Below, piece after piece: positions 4,409 to 61,159 of a stretch of 64,000 bases of DNA. Below the pieces are notes generated by a model. The model searched no databases. It was not told the DNA's origin and worked only from the letters and a program-made list of their open reading frames with translations. A program made the position numbers and the translations under genes. This DNA comes from Minisyncoccota bacterium. GTDB lineage: Bacteria; Patescibacteriota; Minisyncoccia; Phycocordibacterales; UBA1006. The number at the start of each line of letters is the position of its first letter. The first letter of the stretch is position 1. The stretch lies in contig JAQVEZ010000001.1 in the NCBI GenBank assembly GCA_028697455.1, forward strand, positions 67,902 through 131,901. Direction: 5' to 3'.

Positions 4409-4411
4409 AAG

Positions 4412-4484
4412 TGGACCCGACAAGATTCGAACTTGCGACCTCCTCAGTGCAAATGAGGCGCTCTACCAACTAAGCTACGGGCCC
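4412..4484 (-). tRNA. tRNA-Ala(TGC)
   Basis: Cloverleaf GGGCCCG/CGGGUCC with a G3:U70 pair, anticodon loop UUUGCAC, T-loop UUCGAAU. CCA is not encoded. Confidence 0.9.
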
Positions 4485-6963: not shown

Positions 6964-7048
6964 TGGTGCCCAGGGCGGGACTTGAACCCGCACGCTCTAG
7001 GAGCCACGGCCCTCAACCGTGTGTGTATACCAATTCCACCACCTGGGC
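6964..7048 (-). tRNA. tRNA-Leu(GAG)
   Basis: Acceptor GCCCAGG/CCUGGGC, anticodon loop UUGAGGG, long variable arm hairpin GCUC/GAGC, T-loop UUCAAGU. CCA is encoded. Confidence 0.9.
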
Positions 7049-13166: not shown

Positions 13167-14501
13167 CTATTCTTTGAAACTTCCAGCATCAAGTCCCGGA
13201 AGATATGCGAGCGGGTCAAGATAGGCAGCGGTTGGTGCAAGTGGCATTCGATAATTGTTCCCAGGACACGCAGCACTTGGTCGTTCGGTAACCCGTGCCC
13301 CCTCTCCACCATCAACTCCTTTTGTTGCATAAACAGTAAGGTGAAGGTGGGGCCCAGTACTGTGACCAGTATTTCCAGAGTACGCGATAAGATCTCCTTT
13401 TTTCACTGTCTGTCCCTCGGTAACTTTCCAGCTTGAAAGGTGCCCATAAGTCGTTGAGAGTCCTATCCCGGTATGTTCAATGAAAACCCATTTTCCAAAT
13501 GAAGCTCGAGGACATTGCAGATCAGTATCCCCTACCCCCTTTACAATACCGTCAGCAACAGCATACACAGGAGTTCCTACAGCAGCTCGAAAATCAACAC
13601 CACTATGTGATCCAGAAACGTATAAACGTTCCGAAGAAACAGTTTTACCAAAACGCTGGGTTACATAAATATCTTTGAGTGGCCAAGCCAGCACTGCAGA
13701 GCCTTTTTTAGGAAGTGTACTTGGATTAAGAACGAAATCAAGTTTTGATTCGTAATCCCGTATTTCTGCGTCGAGGGCTGAGATCATTTTGACAGTCTCA
13801 TCAAGTTTTTTCTGGTGTTCAGATTCTTTTTTCTGAGTTTCTGAAAGAATTTGATTTTGTTTATCTTCTTGTGATTTAACAATGAGGCGTTGGTCACCTA
13901 AAATTTCTTTCTCCTCTTCAAGTTCTTGTTGCTGGAGTAAAAGGGTTTGACTGCTGTTATAGAGTTCAGATTTTCTCTTTTCAAGTTCTGCTGTTGTCTC
14001 CACAATTCTTGCTTGGAGCTGACTATAGTTATCTCGCGATTCAAAGAGACTTGAGATATTTTCTGCTGAAATAATGGTTTCAAGAATTGTGAGTGAATTC
14101 TGTTGTTCAATTCCTCGCAAAAGAGATTCAAGCGTTTTTGAATGTTCTTTGATGGATTGATTATGGAGTTGAATTTCTAATGCATTTTTGTTGATAGAAA
14201 GATTAAGTTCAGAGATTGTGTTCTCTGTTTTTTTGATCGTATTATCAAGGCTCTTTCTCTCGTTATTTATTCTATTGAGTTCTTGTTGGAGGGTTGTTTT
14301 TTCTCCCTTGGTTTGTTCGAGCTCTTTTCTAATTTCTTCCGCACGTTTTTCAAGTGTTAATCGTTCTTGAGTACGTTCTTGAATTTGTTGTTCAAGCTCT
14401 TCAATCGTTTGCGCTTGTGCAGAAAAAATATTTGTATTGGTAAAAAAAATAGTTCCAATAATCAATGCAAGTGTTATTCCTAAAGTCTTTTTTGTTTTCA
14501 T
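13167..14501 (-). CDS. M23 family metallopeptidase with N-terminal coiled coil (EnvC-like)
   Basis: Signal peptide, long heptad-repeat region, then HSGVDF...YGHLS...GNTGHSTGPHLH, the LytM/M23 motifs. Confidence 0.85.
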   Translation of the reverse strand: MKTKKTLGITLALIIGTIFFTNTNIFSAQAQTIEELEQQIQERTQERLTLEKRAEEIRKELEQTKGEKTTLQQELNRINNERKSLDNTIKKTENTISELNLSINKNALEIQLHNQSIKEHSKTLESLLRGIEQQNSLTILETIISAENISSLFESRDNYSQLQARIVETTAELEKRKSELYNSSQTLLLQQQELEEEKEILGDQRLIVKSQEDKQNQILSETQKKESEHQKKLDETVKMISALDAEIRDYESKLDFVLNPSTLPKKGSAVLAWPLKDIYVTQRFGKTVSSERLYVSGSHSGVDFRAAVGTPVYAVADGIVKGVGDTDLQCPRASFGKWVFIEHTGIGLSTTYGHLSSWKVTEGQTVKKGDLIAYSGNTGHSTGPHLHLTVYATKGVDGGEGARVTERPSAACPGNNYRMPLAPTAAYLDPLAYLPGLDAGSFKE

Positions 14502-15122: not shown

Positions 15123-16454
15123 TTATAACAATTCTCTTGCTTTTTGGATACGACTGAGAGATTCTTTCTTTCCAAGAACAAAAAGTAAAGTAAAGGGATC
15201 TGGAGATTTTTCCTGTCCTGATAGAGCGTAGCGGAGTGGCCAGAGCACATCACCCTTCCCTTCTTGTTCTGCGTAAGGGAAGATGAGCTCCTTGAGGGCG
15301 TCGTTATTCCACTCAGCAGAATAGTTTTCAATTAATTGAGAAACTTTTTCCAAATGTTTTTGGGTTGTTTCTGCAGGATTTTCTTTCCAGGAGATTTTTT
15401 CTTTATTGAGTTCTGGGGAGTTGAAATAATACCCAAGCTCATTTTTTTCAATCATTTCTCTTACCCCGTCAAAATCATCAACCCGTTCTTTTATAATAGG
15501 GATAATTTTTTTAAAAATTTCTTGATTAAAATTTGGAATTTTTTGGAACTCAACTTCAAGAGGTTTAAGATAATTTTCAAACTCATCAAGAGAGTATCTA
15601 TTGAGATATTGTTTGTTAATCCATTTGAGCTTTTCAATATTGAAAACTCCCCCACCCTTTTGAACTTTATTAAGGTCAAATTCCTTGATCAGTTCTTCTT
15701 TTGAGAGAATCTCTCGTTCGTCTCCTGGATTCCATCCGATAAAAGCCATAAAGTTAATCAGTGCTTCTGGGAGAATTCCCTTGTCTTTGTATTCTAAAGT
15801 TGGAACGACTTCGGGGTCACGTTTTGATAGCTTTCCTCCACGAGGGCTCATAATGAGAGGAATATGAGCGTATTGAGGTCTCGAAAAACCAAGTGCTTCA
15901 AGGATAAGAATTTGTCGTGAGGTGTTGTTGATGTGTTCTTGCCCTCGGATAATGTGAGTAACACCCATAAGCCCATCGTCAACAACAACAGTGAGGTGAT
16001 AGACTGGGAGATTAATCGTTCGAGCAATGACAAAATCTCCAAGTTCGGTTGTATCAAATTCTATGTCTCCCAGGATAAGGTCTTTGAAGGAGATTTTTTT
16101 ATTGGGATTTTTGAAACGAATAACGGCCTGTTGAGAATCTTCTTTTGAAGGTTCTGCTTCATAGGCGTGCCCCGAGCTAATGAGCTGTTTGATATGTTTT
16201 TGATAAATAGCTGTCCGTTCAGATTGTCGATAAAATTCATCAAAATCAAGTCCGAGCCACTTAAGAGAATCGAGCATGTTATCTTCATATTCTTGTTTTG
16301 AGCGTTCTTTGTCGGTATCTTCACTTCGGATAATAAAAGTTCCCTTGTGCTGTCGTGCAAAAAGGTAGTTGAACAAGGTCGTTCGTACTGATCCAATATG
16401 GAATTTTCCCGTAGGTGAGGGTGCCATACGAGTAACAATTTTGTTCTCATTCAT
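15123..16454 (-). CDS. gltX: glutamyl-tRNA synthetase
   Basis: PSPTGKFHIGSVRTTLFNYLFARQHKGTFIIRSEDTD (HIGH motif) and the KLSKR region. Confidence 0.9.
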   Translation of the reverse strand: MNENKIVTRMAPSPTGKFHIGSVRTTLFNYLFARQHKGTFIIRSEDTDKERSKQEYEDNMLDSLKWLGLDFDEFYRQSERTAIYQKHIKQLISSGHAYEAEPSKEDSQQAVIRFKNPNKKISFKDLILGDIEFDTTELGDFVIARTINLPVYHLTVVVDDGLMGVTHIIRGQEHINNTSRQILILEALGFSRPQYAHIPLIMSPRGGKLSKRDPEVVPTLEYKDKGILPEALINFMAFIGWNPGDEREILSKEELIKEFDLNKVQKGGGVFNIEKLKWINKQYLNRYSLDEFENYLKPLEVEFQKIPNFNQEIFKKIIPIIKERVDDFDGVREMIEKNELGYYFNSPELNKEKISWKENPAETTQKHLEKVSQLIENYSAEWNNDALKELIFPYAEQEGKGDVLWPLRYALSGQEKSPDPFTLLFVLGKKESLSRIQKARELL

Positions 16455-23276: not shown

Positions 23277-24167
23277 TTAATCTTCAATGAAAAAATCTTC
23301 ATCAATTTCTTTTATAGAAAAAGTTTCCTTAATTTGAACTCCTAAATTATATTTAATCATTAGGTCTACTAATTTATCACCATTGATTAATATAATTTTA
23401 TGATTTCTTGCATCCCTTACTTTTTCTAAGGCTGCCTTATCAAAATCTGAAGTAGTAACAAAAATTCCTTTTGAGACATCACCAGACATTGCTCCAATAA
23501 AATTACGGATTTCTTTTTCTCCCACAAGGTTTGCTGTATATCTTTTTGCCTGAGTATAAATTCTCTCAACCCCTAAAGCATCTTGATTGATAATCCCATC
23601 AATTCCACCATCCCCAGATTTTTTTGTTTCTTGAAAATCTCCATAACCCATTTTTTGAAAAAGTTTTAAAATTATCTTTTCAAAATAATATGGATTTGAA
23701 ACTTTTAATTTTTCCAATAATTCAATTTTTAAATTCTCTTCAATATCAGCATATCCAACTTCAATCATTTCTTGAGATGACAAATCAGTGACTTTTATAT
23801 TTTCGTTATTTTCAGATTTTTTATTTTTTTGATATTTTTGAAAATCGAAATCATTTTGTATATATTCTTTTGTTAAATTTATCCCCTCCTTAAGAATATT
23901 TAATCCTTTATCGGTAATTTTTACATATCCTCTTTCTGGATAATCAACCATTTTTGCTACACGTAATTTTGATTTTGCGAAATGAATACGATTAAGTAAT
24001 GTATTGTCACCATTTTTTGGATTAACTCTATTTAAAACTTCTTCTGGCAAATGTGAATAAAAAGTATCTCTTACTTTTTCTTCAAGGTCTTTTCTGTGTA
24101 AAGTTTCTCCATTACTCAAAATCTTAAGTACTGGGATATATATTTCGTGGTATTTTGGCATTTCCAT
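23277..24167 (-). CDS. mrr: Mrr-like type IV (modification-dependent) restriction endonuclease
   Basis: An Mrr_N winged helix (PKYHEIYIPVLKIL...NRIHFAKSKL). An Mrr_cat domain (YYFEKIILKLFQKMGY...SGDGGIDGII...YTQAKRY...KGIFVTTSDF...LVDLMIKYNLGV) that aligns closely with E. coli Mrr. The track ORF begins at a TTG codon inside the T-box terminator, so the first ATG (MEMPKYHEI) is preferred. Confidence 0.85.
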   Translation of the reverse strand: MEMPKYHEIYIPVLKILSNGETLHRKDLEEKVRDTFYSHLPEEVLNRVNPKNGDNTLLNRIHFAKSKLRVAKMVDYPERGYVKITDKGLNILKEGINLTKEYIQNDFDFQKYQKNKKSENNENIKVTDLSSQEMIEVGYADIEENLKIELLEKLKVSNPYYFEKIILKLFQKMGYGDFQETKKSGDGGIDGIINQDALGVERIYTQAKRYTANLVGEKEIRNFIGAMSGDVSKGIFVTTSDFDKAALEKVRDARNHKIILINGDKLVDLMIKYNLGVQIKETFSIKEIDEDFFIED

Positions 24168-24189
24168 AATATTTTTATATTCTATTTGC

Positions 24190-24395
24190 AAACAAAAAAT
24201 CGTCCGCAATCGATTAACTTATAATCTCTTGCAGGGACGATTTTGGATAACCGCGGTGCCACCCTGATTCCTGATGTGTATCAAGCGCTCTTTATTATTA
24301 GTCCAAAAATATCCTTAGACTTAATTTTTCACCTCAGCTGTGTCAAAGCGTCGTTGGTACATAAAATATAACAAAAATAAGCAAAAAAGAAAAGA
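24190..24395 (-). promoter_or_regulatory. T-box riboswitch leader (likely Asp-specific) upstream of mrr-aspS
   Basis: On the minus strand, AGGGUGGCACCGCGG at 24251-24265 matches the T-box consensus AGGGUGGNACCGCG exactly. The variable position C would pair with G73 of tRNA-Asp. A terminator helix AAAATCGTCC(CTGCAA)...(TTGC)GGACGATTTT with a U-tract follows at 24196-24244. Upstream there is a short stem I-like helix containing GGACUAA (GAC is an Asp codon). Confidence 0.55.
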
Positions 24396-36378: not shown

Positions 36379-36442
36379 CGTTAGTAAAAATAAAAAAGTA
36401 TTGCTCTAAAAACAATAAAATTTTTCAAAAAGAAAAATTTTG

Positions 36443-36516
36443 TGCGCATGCCAAGACTTGAACTTGGGACCTCGTCATTATCAGTGACGCGCTCTAACCA
36501 CCTGAGCTACACGCGC
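36443..36516 (-). tRNA. tRNA-Ile(GAT)
   Basis: Acceptor GCGCGUG/CAUGCGC, anticodon loop CUGAUAA, T-loop UUCAAGU. Confidence 0.85.
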
Positions 36517-36653
36517 ATAACTGAAATAGTATAACAGAAAAAGACATTTTGCAAAGAGACGAGAACCCTCTACTCAAATTTATTAATAGCGAATTTAAAG
36601 AATCATCATGAATTTATTAAAAATAAAACAAAATACCATTTTGGGTACTTCTG

Positions 36654-36727
36654 TGCTCAGGGGCAGACTCGAACTGCCGACATCTTGCTCTTCAGGCAAG
36701 CGCTCTAACCAACTGAGCTACCTGAGC
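36654..36727 (-). tRNA. tRNA-Phe(GAA)
   Basis: Acceptor GCUCAGG/CCUGAGC, anticodon loop CUGAAGA, T-loop UUCGAGU. Confidence 0.9.
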
Positions 36728-36738
36728 ATTATAAGAAA

Positions 36739-37056
36739 CTATCTATTCACAAGATTCTGAAAGATATTTGCCAAATCATTTCCCTCTTGAATCGTCGGTA
36801 TTTGGTTTGCTGTTCCTATTGTTTCTCCAATTCCTTGGTAAAGGTTCATGAGATTCTTAAGGTATGGGATGGAGATGATAGAGGTTCCCACCAAAAAAGC
36901 TACGATAAGAAGATAGTAGAATCCCTTTATTAGGGTATTTCTTCTAAGGTTTGTATGAATCTTTTTTAATAATTCATTGTTTTCTTTGAGAAGAGCTGAA
37001 TTCTTCTCTAGAAGAAATCGATGTTCTTCAGAAGACTTTGAATGATCTTGATTCAT
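36739..37056 (-). CDS. hypothetical single-TM protein embedded between tRNA genes
   Basis: N-terminal coiled-coil-like region and one TM helix (FYYLLIVAFLVGTSIISI). The start is set at MNQDHSK. Confidence 0.4.
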   Translation of the reverse strand: MNQDHSKSSEEHRFLLEKNSALLKENNELLKKIHTNLRRNTLIKGFYYLLIVAFLVGTSIISIPYLKNLMNLYQGIGETIGTANQIPTIQEGNDLANIFQNLVNR

Positions 37057-37105
37057 ACGATGGAAAGTATAACACAAGACGCTCGAGAATCAAACGATTG
37101 CTGTG

Positions 37106-37178
37106 TGTCCTCACCAAGACTTGAACTTGGATCTAGAACTTAGGAGGTTCTTGTTCTTTCCCGTTGAACTATGAGGAC
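37106..37178 (-). tRNA. tRNA-Arg(CCT)
   Basis: Acceptor GUCCUCA/UGAGGAC, anticodon loop CUCCUAA, T-loop UUCAAGU. Confidence 0.85.
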
Positions 37179-37983: not shown

Positions 37984-39777
37984 TTATTTTTTCATCATTT
38001 TTAAGAAAACGTCTTGACTTATATGGACTTTTCCAAGTTCTGCCATTTTTTTCTTTCCTTTCTTTTGTTTTTCTCTGAGTTTCATCTTTCTTGTGATATC
38101 TCCTCCATAGAGTTTTGCCGTAACATCTTTTTTCATGGCAGAAAGACGTTCAGAGGCAATGATTTTTCCATCAACACGAGCCTGGATTTTGAGGGCAAAC
38201 ATCTGCCGAGGTAAGATTTTTGCAAGTTTCTCAACGGTCGTTTTAGCTTCTTCTTGTTTTCGTCGTGAAGCAACAATTCGAGAAAATGCAGGAACGGGTT
38301 CATCAGCAATGAGGACATCCATACGAGTTACATCTGCCGTGTGCATCTCTTTGATCTCATAAGACACCGAAGCATAACCAGAAGAAACCGATTTGAGGTC
38401 ATCGAAGAAATTTCTCATGAGTTCTCGTAAGGGCATCTGTACAAGAAGCTGGGTTCTCCCATCTCCAAAGTTTGTTGTTTCTTTCGTTTCTCCTTCATGC
38501 TCATAGAGAAGCCCCATAACGTTTCCAAGATACTCTCCTGGGCTAATAATTTTCATCTCAACCCAAGGCTCCTCTATGAGGGCAACGTCCCCATGATCAG
38601 GAAACTGGGAGGCTGAATAGACCGTGATGATTTCTCCATCCTTTTTCATTACTTGGTAAGTAACACTTGGTGACGTTACCACGAGTTCAAGTTGAAACTC
38701 TCTTTTGAGTCGTTCTGAGATAATTTCAAGATGTAACATCCCTAAACACCCAATACGAAAACCTCTCCCTAGTGAACCAGAAACTTCCTCCTCAAAAGAA
38801 AGTGATGAATCTGAGAGTTGGAGTTTGCCTAGAGAAATTTTGAGAAGTTCAAAATCGTCAGCGGATTCTGGGTAGACTGACGCCCATACAACAGGAGAAG
38901 GGTTTTGATATCCTGGTAAGCCCTCAAGAGGGTCTTTGAGAAGAGTCAAAGTATCCCCCACCTGAGCAACTCGTGCTTCTTTAATCCCTGTGACAACATA
39001 ACCGATTTCTCCTGCTTTTAATACCCCGGTTTCTTCAGCTTTTGGTTTAAAAACCCCAACCTCAAGAGCAAAGAATTTTCTTCCTGAGGCACGGAAAAAA
39101 AGTTGGTCTCCTTTTTTTATTTCTCCGTCAAAAACTCTGACGTAAACAATAACTCCCTTGTGATCAGAATATTCAAAATCAAAGACAAGTGAACGCGAAC
39201 TTTTTGATTCTTCAATAATTTCTTTTGGAGCTGAAATTTGTTTTATTATTGTTTGTATAAGGTTCTCTACCCCTTCTCCTGTTTTTCCTGATACAAGAAG
39301 GATGTCATCTTCGTCAACGTCGAGAAGGTTGATAACTTCACTTTTTACCTCGTCAACTCGAGCTAAGGGAGAATCAATTTTTGAAAGCACTGGAATAATT
39401 TTTATTCCAGCTTCTTTTGCCATTTCTAGAGTAGTAAAGGTCTGAGCTTGGATTCCTTGGGTAGCGTCAATCAACAATAAGGACCCCTCAACCGCCTTGA
39501 GAGCTCTTGAAACTTCATATGAAAAATCAATATGTCCAGGAGTATCGATAAGGTTTAAAATAAAATCCTTTCCTTCGTATGGGTAGCGCATACGTACTGG
39601 TTGCATCTTGATAGTAATTCCACGCTCTTGCTCTAATTCCATTTTATCAAGTACCTGGCTTTTCATTTTTCGCTCAGGGATCGTTTTGGTTAATTCAATC
39701 ATACGATCAGCAAGTGTTGATTTTCCGTGATCGATGTGAGCAATGATTGAGAAATTTCGAATATGGGAGAGATTCAT
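37984..39777 (-). CDS. lepA: elongation factor 4 (translational GTPase LepA)
   Basis: IRNFSIIAHIDHGKSTLADR, DTPGHIDF, NKIDS, and the LepA-specific C-terminal domain. Confidence 0.95.
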   Translation of the reverse strand: MNLSHIRNFSIIAHIDHGKSTLADRMIELTKTIPERKMKSQVLDKMELEQERGITIKMQPVRMRYPYEGKDFILNLIDTPGHIDFSYEVSRALKAVEGSLLLIDATQGIQAQTFTTLEMAKEAGIKIIPVLSKIDSPLARVDEVKSEVINLLDVDEDDILLVSGKTGEGVENLIQTIIKQISAPKEIIEESKSSRSLVFDFEYSDHKGVIVYVRVFDGEIKKGDQLFFRASGRKFFALEVGVFKPKAEETGVLKAGEIGYVVTGIKEARVAQVGDTLTLLKDPLEGLPGYQNPSPVVWASVYPESADDFELLKISLGKLQLSDSSLSFEEEVSGSLGRGFRIGCLGMLHLEIISERLKREFQLELVVTSPSVTYQVMKKDGEIITVYSASQFPDHGDVALIEEPWVEMKIISPGEYLGNVMGLLYEHEGETKETTNFGDGRTQLLVQMPLRELMRNFFDDLKSVSSGYASVSYEIKEMHTADVTRMDVLIADEPVPAFSRIVASRRKQEEAKTTVEKLAKILPRQMFALKIQARVDGKIIASERLSAMKKDVTAKLYGGDITRKMKLREKQKKGKKKMAELGKVHISQDVFLKMMKK

Positions 39778-50632: not shown

Positions 50633-51895
50633 TCAGCCAAACAATCTTTTGAAAAATCCTTTTTTCTTTGGTTCTACATAATCACCATGAGCATAATTAT
50701 TTTGATGATATTGATTCTCATCGTAATAGGATCTTGTCTGGTAATGTACGTTTCTTAATTCCTGTCCAGGTTCTCCCTGTGGTCTTCCATAAAAATCATC
50801 ATGAGAAAATTCTTGAGCATAGCTAGGTGCTTCGTATGAGTGAGGATCATTTACCTCTTCAAAAGAATGATGCTGGGCTTGAACAAACACCTCTTCTTTT
50901 ACATCCACTTCTTTTTGAGTGTTTATTTCTTCTTTGGGTTCATTAAAGTGTTCTTCCTTTTCAACTCTCAATGGGCTTGATGATTCGAGCGCCTCTACAC
51001 TAGGAATATCACCCCCTTGTCTCTCAGAATATCTCTCTTTTGGGTTTAGGTAATTAAATGAGCTTAAGTTTTTATTTCTCAAGGAAGCAAGAATTCCTTC
51101 AATATCGTTGAGTGTCGAGTAATTAATAAGAATCTGTCCTCCGTTTTCTTTTGCCTCAATGTGAACACGAGTTCCAAGATTTTCAGAAAGTTCCTTTTCA
51201 TAATTACGTATTTTAGGGTCAGTAATAAACTCTTTTTTACGTACCCTATCTTGAGCAATTTTTCGAGCAACCTTTTCGGCATCACGAACAGAGATTTTTT
51301 TGAGAACAATCTCTCTAAAAAGAGTACTCTGTTCGTCAGGACGGTCAGAAAGCATCAAAAGAGGTCGTGTGTGCCCTTCTGTGATCTTATTTGAAAGTAA
51401 CCCCTGTTTGATATCTTCAGGCAATGAGAGCAAGCGGAGGCTGTTTGAAACATATACACGACTTTTTCCCATTCGTTTCCCAATTTCCACATGAGTTAAA
51501 TTAAATTCTTTGTGGAGTTGTTCAAAAGCAAGTGCCCTGTCGATGGGATTAAGATCCTCTCGCTGGAGGTTTTCGATAATAGCAAGCTCGAGCTTTACCT
51601 TGTTGTCAGGTTCTACTCGAATGATAACAGGTACTTGTTGAAGCCGAGCGATTTTTGATGCGCGAAGACGACGCTCTCCAGCAATAAGTTCGTAGAAAAC
51701 ATCCATACCAGCACCATCTGGACGGATAATTTCTTGGCGCGTAACAACAAGTGGTTGAAGGACCCCGTACTGCTTGATAGAATCAGCGAGATCTTCTAGT
51801 GCATTGGCATCAAAGTCACGTCGTGGCTGGAAAGGGTTCGGAAGAATTTTATCTATTTCAACCCAAAAAATAGAATTGTTTTGATACTCTGACAT
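50633..51895 (-). CDS. parB: ParB/Spo0J partition protein with long low-complexity C-terminal extension
   Basis: ParB box GERRLRASKIARL, an HTH, and a roughly 150-aa E/Q/Y/H-rich tail ending KKGFFKRLFG. Confidence 0.85.
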   Translation of the reverse strand: MSEYQNNSIFWVEIDKILPNPFQPRRDFDANALEDLADSIKQYGVLQPLVVTRQEIIRPDGAGMDVFYELIAGERRLRASKIARLQQVPVIIRVEPDNKVKLELAIIENLQREDLNPIDRALAFEQLHKEFNLTHVEIGKRMGKSRVYVSNSLRLLSLPEDIKQGLLSNKITEGHTRPLLMLSDRPDEQSTLFREIVLKKISVRDAEKVARKIAQDRVRKKEFITDPKIRNYEKELSENLGTRVHIEAKENGGQILINYSTLNDIEGILASLRNKNLSSFNYLNPKERYSERQGGDIPSVEALESSSPLRVEKEEHFNEPKEEINTQKEVDVKEEVFVQAQHHSFEEVNDPHSYEAPSYAQEFSHDDFYGRPQGEPGQELRNVHYQTRSYYDENQYHQNNYAHGDYVEPKKKGFFKRLFG

Positions 51896-51983
51896 ACAAT
51901 ACCTATAATATCACATCGCTTATGAATAAGAAATTTATCATCTTGCAAAAAGCACAACTTTTCAGTAGTATCATAAGGTGTAA

Positions 51984-52065
51984 GCCGGAGTGGCGGAATT
52001 GGTAGACGCGTACGACTCAAAATCGTATATCTTTGGGTGTGTGGGTTCAAGTCCCACCTCCGGCA
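51984..52065 (+). tRNA. tRNA-Leu(CAA)
   Basis: Acceptor GCCGGAG/CUCCGGC, anticodon loop CUCAAAA, long variable arm, T-loop UUCAAGU. CCA is not encoded. Confidence 0.9.
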
Positions 52066-52127
52066 CGAGTATTAAAACCCAGAAAATTTGTTTTGGGTTT
52101 TAATATACGAGTAGCAAAAAGGTTGTG

Positions 52128-52316
52128 GGGCTTGAAAAAAGCGAAGCGGTATACAAGACGATCCACCAGCTGGCGGAGAGTGCTTGTCGCGAGCGGCGGG
52201 GCCCTACGAATGGGGTCGCAGTGAGTGCAGAGCACGAAACGAGACCCATGAGGGTGACCAAGTCCCACCTCCGGCACACAGCAAAACAAAAAACACTCAT
52301 TTTTGAGTGTTTTTTG
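52128..52316 (-). repeat. copy A of a two-copy GC-rich structured element (candidate sRNA or dispersed repeat), ending with a U-tract
   Basis: The 48-nt core CCCTCATGGGTCTCGTTTCGTGCTCTGCACTCACTGCGACCCCATTCG is 45/48 identical to copy B. Like copy B, it is flanked by a 5' AAAAACAC(Y)CA...UG(R)GUGUUUU hairpin and a 3' GC-rich region followed by TTTTTT. GC content is far above the local average. Confidence 0.45.
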
Positions 52317-52317
52317 T

Positions 52318-52986
52318 TTATTCGTTTTCTCCTTCTTTATCTTCTGAAGTAACTTCCTCATGCGCTCGAACCTCTCCTCCTGAGACAATATCATTATAGA
52401 GATAGGTAGAAGCAATTGAGATGAATGGAATAACAACGATCATACCAACGAGGGTGAGTGCTCCAATAATTGAAATAATTCCAATAAGGATCAAGAAGAA
52501 GAATATTCTCCAACGATTTCCTTTAGTTAATTTCCAAGATTTTGAAAAAGATTCCATAACTTTTGCTTTTTCATCAGCAACAAGATATTGCGTCATGTAG
52601 AGTCCGGACATCAAAATGAGTCCTGGAATAATCAAAGCAATAAACCCAAATCCAATAATAATTGCATAAACAATTCCTACAATCAAGAATGAAAAATAAA
52701 GTTTCAGACTAATATTTTCAAAAAGGTTTCTTAGGGCAATCTTCTTCCCTCGAATACGATTAAGAATCATTCTAATAAGACCGAGACTAAGAAATACTGA
52801 AAGAAGTCCTCCAATCAATTTGATAAAGAATTCAGATGCTGTGTAAAAACTTGAAGAATCAAATTTTAATTCTGTTAAAAATGCAACAATTGAAATGATA
52901 AGCCCTGCTGATAAAAAGATTTTCCAATCTTGAGTAAAAGTATCCCAAGAACGTCGAAAGATATTATTAATACTTATTTTTTTCAT
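52318..52986 (-). CDS. hypothetical polytopic membrane protein
   Basis: Four to five TM helices and an acidic C-terminal tail. Confidence 0.5.
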   Translation of the reverse strand: MKKISINNIFRRSWDTFTQDWKIFLSAGLIISIVAFLTELKFDSSSFYTASEFFIKLIGGLLSVFLSLGLIRMILNRIRGKKIALRNLFENISLKLYFSFLIVGIVYAIIIGFGFIALIIPGLILMSGLYMTQYLVADEKAKVMESFSKSWKLTKGNRWRIFFFLILIGIISIIGALTLVGMIVVIPFISIASTYLYNDIVSGGEVRAHEEVTSEDKEGENE

Positions 52987-57057: not shown

Positions 57058-57906
57058 CTACAGAGAAACAAATTCTGGATGGATAAGTTCATGGACTTCT
57101 TTCACAAGTTTCTTTGCTGTTCTCTCAGAAACTCCATAATCTTTTTCAAAATCTTTTGCTTCAAGATAATAAAGGTCTTGCACAAGAACCACATCATTGA
57201 GTGCGAGTTTTTTAAGTAATGATTGTGTCATTGAAGGAACAACGGTAACAGGATAAAGCTTTTTTTCGCGAACTATTTTTTTGAGATTAATAAATTTAGG
57301 ATAATCCCACCCCATCAACTGTAGGTCTCGGTGCTCTATATAATTGAGCGAGTTCTGAGTGAACTGAGTGTTCGTAACCATCCACATATAATACTCCCGA
57401 GTATCCCCATTGAGCTGAGCTTTTTTTCGAATATCAACAAGGCGAGCATCAGCATACATAACCTTATCGATATGTGTTTTTGTACGAAAATCATTTTTGT
57501 ATTTTGCTTCAACAAGGAAGACAACATTCCCTTTTTGAGCCATAACATCAATTTCATGTTCAACAGCCTCCCCATGGAGATACACATTTTTTTGAGAAAA
57601 ATATCCCATCTTTCTAAAAAGCTCAGAAACAAAGTGCTCGAAAAGAAATCCTGAAGGCCCCAAGGAACTTAGACCTCTCTCAAGAGAGTATAAGGCTGCA
57701 AGTTCAGGATCAATAGGTTTTAAGTATTTTCGTGTAATATTAAAAATCTTCTCAGTTGATGTTCCTGAGCTTATTTTTTCTGAGACGATATCACAAACCT
57801 GTGTTGCGAGTGATGTTGGGGCTCCAGCAGCGACAATAGAGTTACAAAGCTTTTCTGCAGAAAAAGGTTCTTGTGATCCATTTTTTTTAATGATTTTTTT
57901 ACTCAT
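57058..57906 (-). CDS. ATP-cone domain fused to a restriction-endonuclease-like PD-(D/E)xK nuclease domain
   Basis: An N-terminal ATP-cone (KIIKKNGSQEPFSAEKLCNSIVAAGA...). An Mrr_cat-like block (FLFEHFVSELFRKMGYF...HEIDVMAQKGNVVFLVEAKYK) with the D...EAK catalytic pattern. Confidence 0.7.
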   Translation of the reverse strand: MSKKIIKKNGSQEPFSAEKLCNSIVAAGAPTSLATQVCDIVSEKISSGTSTEKIFNITRKYLKPIDPELAALYSLERGLSSLGPSGFLFEHFVSELFRKMGYFSQKNVYLHGEAVEHEIDVMAQKGNVVFLVEAKYKNDFRTKTHIDKVMYADARLVDIRKKAQLNGDTREYYMWMVTNTQFTQNSLNYIEHRDLQLMGWDYPKFINLKKIVREKKLYPVTVVPSMTQSLLKKLALNDVVLVQDLYYLEAKDFEKDYGVSERTAKKLVKEVHELIHPEFVSL

Positions 57907-60570: not shown

Positions 60571-60875
60571 TTTTTAATAATTATTTAACTAAATTATATT
60601 AATAAATAATTTATTGTCAATATCATAAAGAACTAAAAAAGAACCCTTTCGGATTCTTTTTTCAGTATTTTTTACTTAAAGATTTTTTCTTTTAAATCTT
60701 CATATGAGGATATCATGTCGTATTTGATATCACCTGTATTAAGTGACTCAAATTTATTATTAAAAATCGTGATCATATTATGTTTTTTTACTAATTTTGA
60801 TAAACGTTTTCACAATATATGTAAATTGTACCAAAAAAGACAAAAAATAGAATTTTAAATTTATTTTTAAAACCT

Positions 60876-61020
60876 AAAAACACCCAATACTTCGTATTGG
60901 GTGTTTAAGGTCATATGACCCTCATGGGTCTCGTTTCGTACTCTGCACTCACTACGACCTCATTCGCTCGACCCCGCCGTCGCCTACGGACTTCGTCCGG
61001 CTTCGCAGGCGACTTTTTTC
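60876..61020 (+). repeat. copy B of the two-copy GC-rich structured element, with 3' terminator hairpin GTCGCCT...AGGCGAC plus T6
   Basis: Same architecture as copy A: a 5' hairpin ACACCCAAUA/UAUUGGGUGU, the 45/48-identical core, a GC-rich hairpin, and a U-tract. Convergent with tRNA-Gln. Confidence 0.45.
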
Positions 61021-61088
61021 GAATCCTTTCTGATCAGGTAAAGCAAAAAGCATCTCCATACTTTTGTATGAAGATGCTCTGCTTTATG

Positions 61089-61159
61089 CTGCCAGACTAG
61101 GATTCGAACCTAGATAGTCGGCGCCAGAAGCCGAAGTCCTACCATTAGACGATCTGGCA
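61089..61159 (-). tRNA. tRNA-Gln(CTG)
   Basis: U1:A72 acceptor UGCCAGA/UCUGGCA, anticodon loop UUCUGGC, T-loop UUCGAAU, discriminator G. Confidence 0.85.

Follow-up and report, generated by a model that had tools for sequence, protein, structure and literature searches.

Two short GC-rich blocks, here termed copy A and copy B, lie beside tRNA genes in a 64,000-nucleotide (nt) stretch of contig JAQVEZ010000001.1 from a Minisyncoccota bacterium (the whole 64-kb stretch is referred to as the window). They are probably two copies of a miniature (about 190–211 bp), non-coding and non-autonomous element that integrates site-specifically at the T-loop and 3' end of tRNA genes and is moved in trans. 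The element supplies a replacement tRNA 3' end together with a terminator hairpin and so leaves the target tRNA whole; the 3' end that originally belonged to the gene now lies beyond the insert, as a direct repeat. A first-pass annotation, made from the letters of the window, had proposed at copy A a novel small RNA (sRNA) or structured repeat family. A repeated element is indeed present, and it bears the hallmarks of mobility in an exact-ended polymorphism and in direct repeats of a tRNA 3' end; the sRNA on the minus strand is the part of the proposal that did not hold. The annotated interval (52128-52316) also misses the left ~60 nt of the insert (52067-52127) and takes in ~40 nt of native flank.

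Two copies of a short element at tRNA 3' ends

The GC content of the window is 36.6% overall, and copies A and B form its two strongest GC peaks (0.65 and 0.61 in 100-nt windows), in agreement with the first-pass annotation. ARAGORN places a tRNA-Leu(CAA) gene just 5' of copy A, where the annotation had put it, and a tRNA-Gln(CTG) gene just 5' of copy B, both in the sense of the tRNA. Other stretches of at least 55% GC outside tRNA genes occur only at 13183-13370 and 15211-15320, inside the genes for an M23 peptidase and a Glu/Gln-tRNA synthetase, and neither shows similarity to the element. The most conserved part of the two copies is a 49-nt core with 46 of 49 positions identical (93.9%; in agreement with the 45/48 of the annotation). 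A degenerate 41-nt pattern of this core matches the window at 52214-52254 (-) and 60919-60959 (+) and nowhere else, with 0 matches expected by chance, and the claim of two copies in opposite orientation is borne out. Relative to its own tRNA each copy has the same orientation, with the tRNA first and the element after it on the tRNA-sense strand.

Both copies follow one layout, which in the sense of the tRNA consists of the intact tRNA, a few nt, a hairpin, an inverted copy of the target, a run of A6, a variable GC-rich hairpin, the core ending in GAGGGTGAC, and lastly the fragment of the tRNA that was displaced. Replacement tRNA end, hairpin and inverted block make up a left-hand module that is specific to each target, and the two hairpins, T2 in copy A and T2' in copy B, are not homologous to each other. 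The right-hand module is homologous between A and B throughout and well beyond the 49-nt core, as seen by pairwise alignment in blocks such as GCGAAGC(C)GG and GCGA(G)CGGCGGGG. The target junctions lie in the T-loop, at GGTT/CAAGT and GGTT/CGAAT (a slash marks the junction).

In copy A the boundaries are exact. Its two 19-nt repeats are 100% identical, stand in direct orientation and are spaced 211 nt from start to start (repeat search, family D1), and the extra DNA amounts to 211 nt, that is 192 unique nt plus one copy of the repeat. The core runs on as GAGGGTGAC (52250-52258) up to the junction. The GAGGGT at the end of the core resembles the 5' strand of a T-stem, and with the displaced fragment it forms a T-arm-like hairpin with four of five pairs. 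A strong promoter-like sequence for tRNA-Leu, TTGATA-17-TATAAT, lies at 51881-51909 (promoter scan), and reading from it could continue through the weak T2 hairpin on the tRNA-sense strand. Copy A also contains a short direct repeat, ACGAGTATTAAAA (52065-52077) and ACGAGTAGCAAAA (52107-52119), which flanks T2, breaks up the palindrome and is not matched by anything in copy B.

Each inverted block can pair with the intact tRNA end. The arms of copy A (52046-52057 and 52125-52136) are complementary at 11 of 12 positions with 67 nt between them, and those of copy B (61018-61027 and 61099-61108) at 10 of 10 with 71 nt between them. As single-stranded DNA (ssDNA), the region from T-loop to inverted block folds far better than shuffled sequences at both loci (52044-52142, z = -4.3; 61012-61110, z = -8.9). 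An inverted target block follows both of the element-bearing tRNAs and none of the five other tRNAs of the window, and none of those five genes has a displaced tRNA fragment. The block appears to be carried by the element rather than made at insertion, because it is target-specific (Leu-like in one copy, Gln-like in the other) and is imperfect in the perfectly bounded copy A. The tRNA genes of the window lie at 4411-4484, 6964-7048, 36442-37178, 51984-52066 and 61088-61159; the 3' CCA is unencoded in 6/7 of them, tRNA-Leu(GAG) being the only one that ends in CCA, and a short terminator hairpin flanked by A/T, in the style of the element-borne T2, comes after most of them.

Copy B in the window lacks the displaced fragment and passes straight from the core into native flank (GAGGGT/CATATGACC). 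In a related strain, two contigs that start inside the core (L016 and L018) read GAAACGAGACCCATGAGGGTGAC/CGAATCCTACCCGGGCAG/CATATGACC, so that the core is followed by a tRNA-Gln-like fragment reaching from the T-loop to the 3' end, with the junction GAGGGTGAC/C as in copy A. The only near match to this fragment in the window is the 3' end of the resident tRNA-Gln, with three mismatches. Window copy B has therefore lost the 21 nt after GAGGGT, made up of GAC and the tRNA-Gln-like 3' fragment, which L016 and L018 retain. A second insertion/deletion polymorphism adjoins copy B: an AT-rich segment at 60663-60870 (~210-230 nt, 19-24% GC), between terminator-like hairpins at 60635-60662 and 60878-60906, is present in the window and in contig L012 and missing from L016 and L018, in which the flank hairpin of copy B directly abuts the upstream region of a gene for 215 amino acids. 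An arm of this flank hairpin (AAACACCCAATAC...) has a 17-nt exact match at 38743-38759, in or near lepA, which is probably due to chance or to similarity of terminator style.

No credible open reading frame (ORF) is found in the 192-nt insert; the open frames of the two copies have ~20 residues in common and differ entirely after them. Against 5.8 billion predicted proteins (Logan and other assemblies), a six-frame chimeric protein query returned no similar ORF at E <= 10. All three core differences are non-synonymous in the shared open frame, as the first-pass annotation had stated, and a protein-coding reading was rejected on these grounds. The features of both loci are collected in Table 1.

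Table 1. Coordinates of the two element copies, their target genes and adjoining native features in the window.
Feature	Position	Strand	Basis or remark
tRNA-Leu(CAA), intact (regenerated) target of copy A	51984..52066	+	ARAGORN; Rfam tRNA, 61.7 bits
Left 19-nt direct repeat CAAGTCCCACCTCCGGCAC, attL core	52048..52066	+	Begins at T-loop C56 and reaches the end of the tRNA
Inserted DNA of copy A, 192 nt, co-oriented with the tRNA	52067..52258	+	Missing from the empty-site allele (alignment)
Element-borne hairpin T2 (AAAACCCAGAA...TTTTGGGTTTT), apex of a long palindrome	52070..52105	+	Inverted repeat I2, 15-nt arms, 93% complementary; ssDNA fold
Inverted, imperfect tRNA-Leu T-loop/T-stem/acceptor 3' strand (GGTTGTGGGGCTTGAA)	52121..52136	+	Inverted repeat I3; followed by A-run 52135-52140
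Variable GC-rich hairpin region of copy A	52141..52206	+	Partly alignable with copy B (blocks GCGAAGCGG, GCGAGCGGCGGGG); folds
Conserved 49-nt core of copy A	52207..52255	+	46/49 identical to copy B; contains palindrome ACCCATGAGGGT
Right 19-nt repeat, displaced tRNA-Leu 3' fragment, attR core	52259..52277	+	Followed by native flank
Native bidirectional terminator common to tRNA-Leu and the DUF975 gene, outside the element	52284..52319	.	Adjoins the tRNA in empty-site contigs; terminator scan
tRNA-Gln(CTG), intact target of copy B	61088..61159	-	ARAGORN; Rfam; identical in related strains
Copy B, ~170 nt, co-oriented with tRNA-Gln	60918..61087	-	Alignment with L016/L018; sequence read
Element-borne terminator hairpin T2', directly after tRNA-Gln	61047..61080	-	Terminator scan, 15 pairs; inverted repeat I2
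Inverted tRNA-Gln-3'-like block, TTCGAATCCTTTCTGATCAGG on the + strand	61018..61038	+	Inverted repeat I3; preceded by T6/A6 run at 61014-61019
Variable GC-rich hairpin of copy B (GTCGCCTGCGAAGCCGGACGAAGTCCGTAGGCGAC)	60967..61013	-	Folds; inverted repeat I5
Conserved 49-nt core of copy B	60918..60966	-	Pattern search; pairwise alignment
Native terminator-like hairpin past the junction, outside the element	60878..60906	.	Beyond the displaced tRNA fragment in L016/L018; terminator scan

Filled and empty sites in related strains

The site of copy A lies between a gene for a DUF975-family membrane protein and a ParB gene, and contigs for comparison were fetched through identical or near-identical copies of the DUF975 protein and of ParB. 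The spacer between these two genes measures 423 nt in the filled state, found in the window and in an independent Logan assembly (L001/L032), versus 210 nt in the empty state, seen in other samples, in at least six contigs (L005, L007, L009, L031, L033 and L034). When the window and L001 are aligned with L005, L007 and L009, the empty allele passes from tRNA-Leu directly to the terminator hairpin at 52284-52319. The tRNA-Leu gene has the same sequence in filled and empty alleles, and the adjacent ParB shows 100% identity between them. Because the 19-nt repeat is shorter than the k-mer of the assembler, the empty allele does not stem from a repeat collapsed during assembly.

Integration into tRNA genes is a principal route by which bacterial islands and prophages enter chromosomes, and the known elements of this kind are kilobases long and carry their own integrase. 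The locus of copy A shows most of what defines such islands: the insertion lies in the 3' part of a tRNA gene with an identity block from T-loop to 3' end (the same junction is seen in L016), the target is regenerated intact with the displaced fragment distal and in the same orientation, and the empty site exists in related genomes. What is missing is an integrase of its own, the insert being 192 nt long and the 64 kb holding no integrase match in Pfam; the element can therefore be filed only as a non-autonomous derivative. The Islander method defines islands in tRNA genes by the regenerated gene and the displaced fragment, and searches of this type reject candidates that are below 2 kb or lack an integrase (PMC4383910). 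Beyond these likenesses, the element differs from known tRNA-gene islands in being ~0.2 kb against 2-200 kb (10 to 1000 times smaller), in having no integrase or other gene, and in carrying an extra inverted copy of the target; an Islander-type search would discard it.

Several observations weigh against a mobile element of this kind. Among the ~50 ORFs of the 64-kb window scanned against Pfam there is no integrase, transposase, reverse transcriptase (RT) or HUH protein, and no recombinase linked to the element was found. Only two loci are known: a blastn-short search with the core gave no further copy in the window and 34 fetched loci; neither an exact 20-mer nor, after it, a 29-mer tolerant of transitions found any in 185,579 GTDB species genomes; a 19-mer found only three chance matches, all inside coding DNA, in the JGI metagenomes; five patterns gave nothing or one chance match in IMG/VR; and blastn against phage and plasmid collections gave nothing. 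A circle of ~200 nt is very small for synapsis by a recombinase. The filled and empty lineages are ~5% apart overall and are not near-clones, and the window compared with L016 is a mosaic of near-identical blocks and blocks of 93-96% identity. A breakpoint falls exactly at tRNA-Leu/copy A, with identity of 99.86% on the ParB side versus 97.2% on the DUF975 side. Because of this divergence and breakpoint, the polymorphism of copy A need not reflect a fresh insertion: it could be of long standing, could have come in by homologous recombination, or could have arisen by deletion of the segment between the 19-nt repeats. Finally, the displaced fragment of L016 has three mismatches to the resident tRNA-Gln, in which all stems are fully paired. 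These mismatches fit either a crossover at the extreme 3' end, the fragment then coming from the element, or rearrangement at a later time.

The mosaic structure of the locus indicates what appears to be frequent homologous exchange between lineages ~5% apart. Between 44000 and 61000, segments with 0-3 mismatches per 500 nt relative to L016 (strain SRR21722*; ~51980-48980 and 47980-45480) alternate with segments that are 4-10% divergent. The divergence between the window and L016 goes on past copy B, and the 8.6 kb between A and B was rejected as a composite unit for this reason. Two further loci are of note in the search for copies: behind FtsX homologues at 59-65% identity (L027, L028) the tRNA-Gln is present without the element, and the contig with a DUF975 homologue at 33% identity (L011) ends inside a tRNA. 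Breaks in Logan contigs at the tRNA-Gln 3' end, at A6/G and inside the core were left unused as evidence of copy number, strain heterogeneity explaining them equally well.

Possible modes of movement and competing explanations

The miniature element would be moved in trans by a site-specific recombinase whose gene lies elsewhere; the 19-nt identity block and the T-loop sublocation indicate that this is most likely a tyrosine recombinase. Among the sublocations recognised for integrases is an attB beginning in the T-loop (bioRxiv 10.1101/2020.11.02.365908), and the attP core of Ms6 lies in the T-loop of a tRNA-Ala (PMC1762012). The constant GC-rich core, which abuts the crossover, is probably the protein-recognition part (P-arm/core) of an attachment site rather than an RNA gene. 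The predicted circle junction of copy A would read …CATGAGGGTGAC-CAAGTCCCACCTCCGGCAC-GAGTATTAAAACCC…, i.e. GAGGGTGAC-CAAGTCCCACCTCCGGCAC-GAGTATT.

A more specific mechanism may be suggested tentatively, and is in our judgement rather unlikely: the ~200-nt, gene-less element of the candidate phyla radiation (CPR) might integrate into tRNA genes as a folded single strand, the direct and inverted copies of the target forming a forked-hairpin site and the core recruiting a recombinase of the host or of a helper. Speculatively, a small single-stranded circle could open within one arm of the hairpin formed by two inverted target-like sites, and such integration would yield the regenerated target, a loop, the inverted copy, the body and the displaced target, in that order. 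Precedents exist in CTXphi, in which two opposite dif-like sites ~90 nt apart fold into a forked hairpin for integration (PMC3089051, PMC3442271), and in integron attC sites, which recombine similarly via a folded hairpin (PMC4792948). Like CTXphi, other integrative mobile elements exploiting Xer (IMEX) and attC sites, the element has two opposite target-like sites, here 67-71 nt apart (~90 nt in CTXphi), that are able to pair in both A and B; the pairing is imperfect and gives a long forked hairpin, the target is restored, and the integrated order fits, as far as topology goes, a single strand exchange followed by replication. The differences are equally plain. The element targets a tRNA gene, not dif or attI, and no Xer/dif-like or GTTRRRY motif was seen on reading the junction sequences; in the hairpin, the half-site right of the junction would alone be double-stranded; and the element is ~30 times smaller than CTXphi. 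The half-site and the nature of the target weaken the hairpin model, and a single-stranded form of the element is purely hypothetical.

The integrated-island structure, with regenerated tRNA and displaced fragment, could also be left by two large prophages or islands that once occupied tRNA-Leu and tRNA-Gln and whose interiors were deleted, so that copies A and B would be inert, immobile scars of fused attL and attR arms. The lack of an integrase in or near the copies agrees with such scars, as does the missing attR fragment of window copy B, a sign of decay. Against them, A and B are homologous straight across the would-be deletion point (GCGA(G)CGGCGGGG...), and searches of IMG/VR, the phage and plasmid collections and the GTDB genomes turned up no full-length relative with the core. 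Because the homology extends across the whole body, a single miniature ancestor seems to have moved to two tRNA genes in place of two islands decaying separately; any deletion must predate the spread to both genes, and therefore the miniature form itself would have moved. Scars are for these reasons considered unlikely.

Several observations speak for an RNA gene: GC-rich islands in AT-rich genomes often mark structured RNAs, the 49-nt core is highly conserved between divergent flanks, and the inter-copy differences are non-synonymous in the open frame. A structured RNA of ~150 nt would be read from the strand opposite to the tRNA, pass through the core and stop at the GC-rich hairpin and U6; the mobile element might carry it as cargo, and its 5' part would be antisense to the tRNA 3' end. 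The hairpin before U6 that had been claimed for both copies is a good stem on the antisense strand of copy B, and copy A has no clean stem before its U-run. The 5' hairpins with a supposed compensatory C:G/U:A change, which had been assigned to the repeat, are independent native terminators at non-homologous positions (52284-52319 and 60878-60906), so that the start of the proposed RNA in fact lies in native terminator DNA. Before copy A the promoter scan finds no promoter-like site on the minus strand, where 10 nt of native flank separate the 16-bp terminator from the element.

The folding results point the same way. Folds that include the flanking terminators reach z = -4.7 and -5.3, and these terminators account for the high scores. 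Taken by itself, the GC-rich body has z = -1.6 to -1.9 when folded as RNA from either strand and -0.5 to -2.9 when folded as DNA, and its folding is not better than that of shuffled sequences. Selection on RNA structure had been inferred for the core; in the proposed helices there are zero compensatory pairs between A and B, one G-C pair becoming G-U and another becoming A.C on the proposed strand, and the substitutions favour neither strand, because the second pair is G-U on the opposite one. The covariation test has almost no power with two sequences only. No known RNA family is matched: at gathering scores Rfam 15 matches only the tRNAs at both loci, with nothing credible over the core at E <= 10. 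The first-pass annotation had itself named only two copies with neither covariation nor a transcript, or else a match to the ends of known IS/MITE elements, as speaking against its proposal; two copies, no covariation and the termini of a mobile element are what was found, which largely answers to this. The sRNA gene is thus regarded as quite unlikely, and an RNA role of the element is unsupported. Two related ideas were also discarded on inspection: a hammerhead-like AGUGA-[GUGC AGA GCAC]-GAAAC lacks the CUGANGA box and the stem III/cleavage triplet and has no Rfam ribozyme match, and a tRNA-like or transfer-messenger RNA (tmRNA)-like fold of body and fragment is not found by ARAGORN, the 5' acceptor partner being imperfect in A and absent in B.

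A guide RNA of the type used by TnpB (reRNA), IscB (omega RNA) or IS110 (bridge RNA) would make the core a scaffold and the tRNA-derived 19 nt, or the inverted block, a guide. On the tRNA-sense strand the core directly abuts the 19-nt target-matching segment, with a terminator after it, and the target-matching segments vary between copies with the core constant, both in keeping with a guide. A weak Rfam match to IS605-orfB-I (E = 0.03-0.04) had seemed to add to this; at 19.8 bits against a gathering cut-off of 94.2 it was rejected as spurious, because it aligns only unspecific hairpins of the flanks and passes over the core, which it treats as a 78-nt insertion. No gene of the TnpB, IscB or IS110 type is present in the 64 kb, and the body is not detectably structured. 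IS200/IS605 and IS110 insertions are not known to produce a 19-nt target duplication. A guide RNA is accordingly viewed as highly improbable. An origin from a miniature inverted-repeat transposable element (MITE) or an insertion sequence (IS) was likewise set aside, as the only terminal inverted pair is tRNA-derived and target-specific, the duplication is 19 nt of tRNA, and no phage or plasmid similarity is seen.

Relation to known elements and genomic setting

The miniature element may be placed beside several families of small repeats. MITEs have terminal inverted repeats of the transposase type, make target duplications of 2-10 bp and insert at many sites; cis-mobilizable elements (CIMEs) are att-flanked remnants of integrative elements, and those described are of kilobase size. 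The element shares with both a short, non-coding body, cis-acting ends only, an enzyme acting in trans, several copies and presence or absence at the level of strains; it differs from MITEs in that its 'duplication' is the 19-nt tRNA 3' end and its targets are specific tRNA genes. A distant analogy might be found in the tyrT operon of Escherichia coli, whose 178-bp units, as reportedly described by Egan and Landy in 1978, each end in the last 19 nt of tRNA-Tyr; these units are said to be arranged in tandem, in 3.14 copies, and to encode a small basic peptide. The likeness lies in a unit of ~0.2 kb that follows a tRNA gene and closes with 19 nt copied from the 3' end of that tRNA; the differences lie in the tandem arrangement, in the peptide-coding capacity, and in an inverted target copy or a conserved GC-rich core not being described for the tyrT units.

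A 0.2-kb non-coding element with the ends of an island would mean that integration machinery has parasites of its own, as transposases have MITEs, and such mini-elements would be systematically missed by standard detectors. If it does integrate as a folded single strand, the element would be the smallest site-specific integrative element known and a tRNA-targeting analogue of the single-strand recombination of CTXphi and integrons; a hairpin site, if real, would show that site-specific recombination of single strands is not confined to dif and integrons and would suggest a compact, re-targetable integration module. The mobile elements of CPR/Patescibacteria are poorly known, and the element offers a handle toward the recombinase responsible. 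It also marks a breakpoint of recombination between strains. For annotation, GC-rich islands beside tRNA genes in AT-rich genomes should not be presumed to be sRNA genes.

The host belongs to the same radiation, the DUF975-family protein of the window being identical to a protein annotated in a metagenome-assembled genome of Candidatus Pacebacteria (CPR/Patescibacteria). Among the ~50 ORFs scanned, those with a Pfam match are all housekeeping genes, among them those for Mur ligase, UvrC, ATP synthase, aminoacyl-tRNA synthetases, FtsW, FtsE/X, ParB, ScpA/B, PBP2 and GreA. An Mrr-type restriction-endonuclease domain occurs in two proteins, at 23277-24209 (-) and 57058-57906 (-), the second of which is encoded between copies A and B; one of the two has Mrr_N, and the other an N-terminal ATP-cone and an AF1548-like C-terminal domain. 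At a separate locus, between greA and lysS, strain SRR30309652 has ~216 extra nt (L002 1146-1496, compared with L003 1362-1496), of a sequence unrelated to the element, which carry an ORF of 61 amino acids on the opposite strand. The ParB encoded beside copy A (50633-51895 (-)) has a C-terminal extension of ~140 residues past the dimerisation domain, of low complexity and rich in Glu, Gln, Tyr and His.

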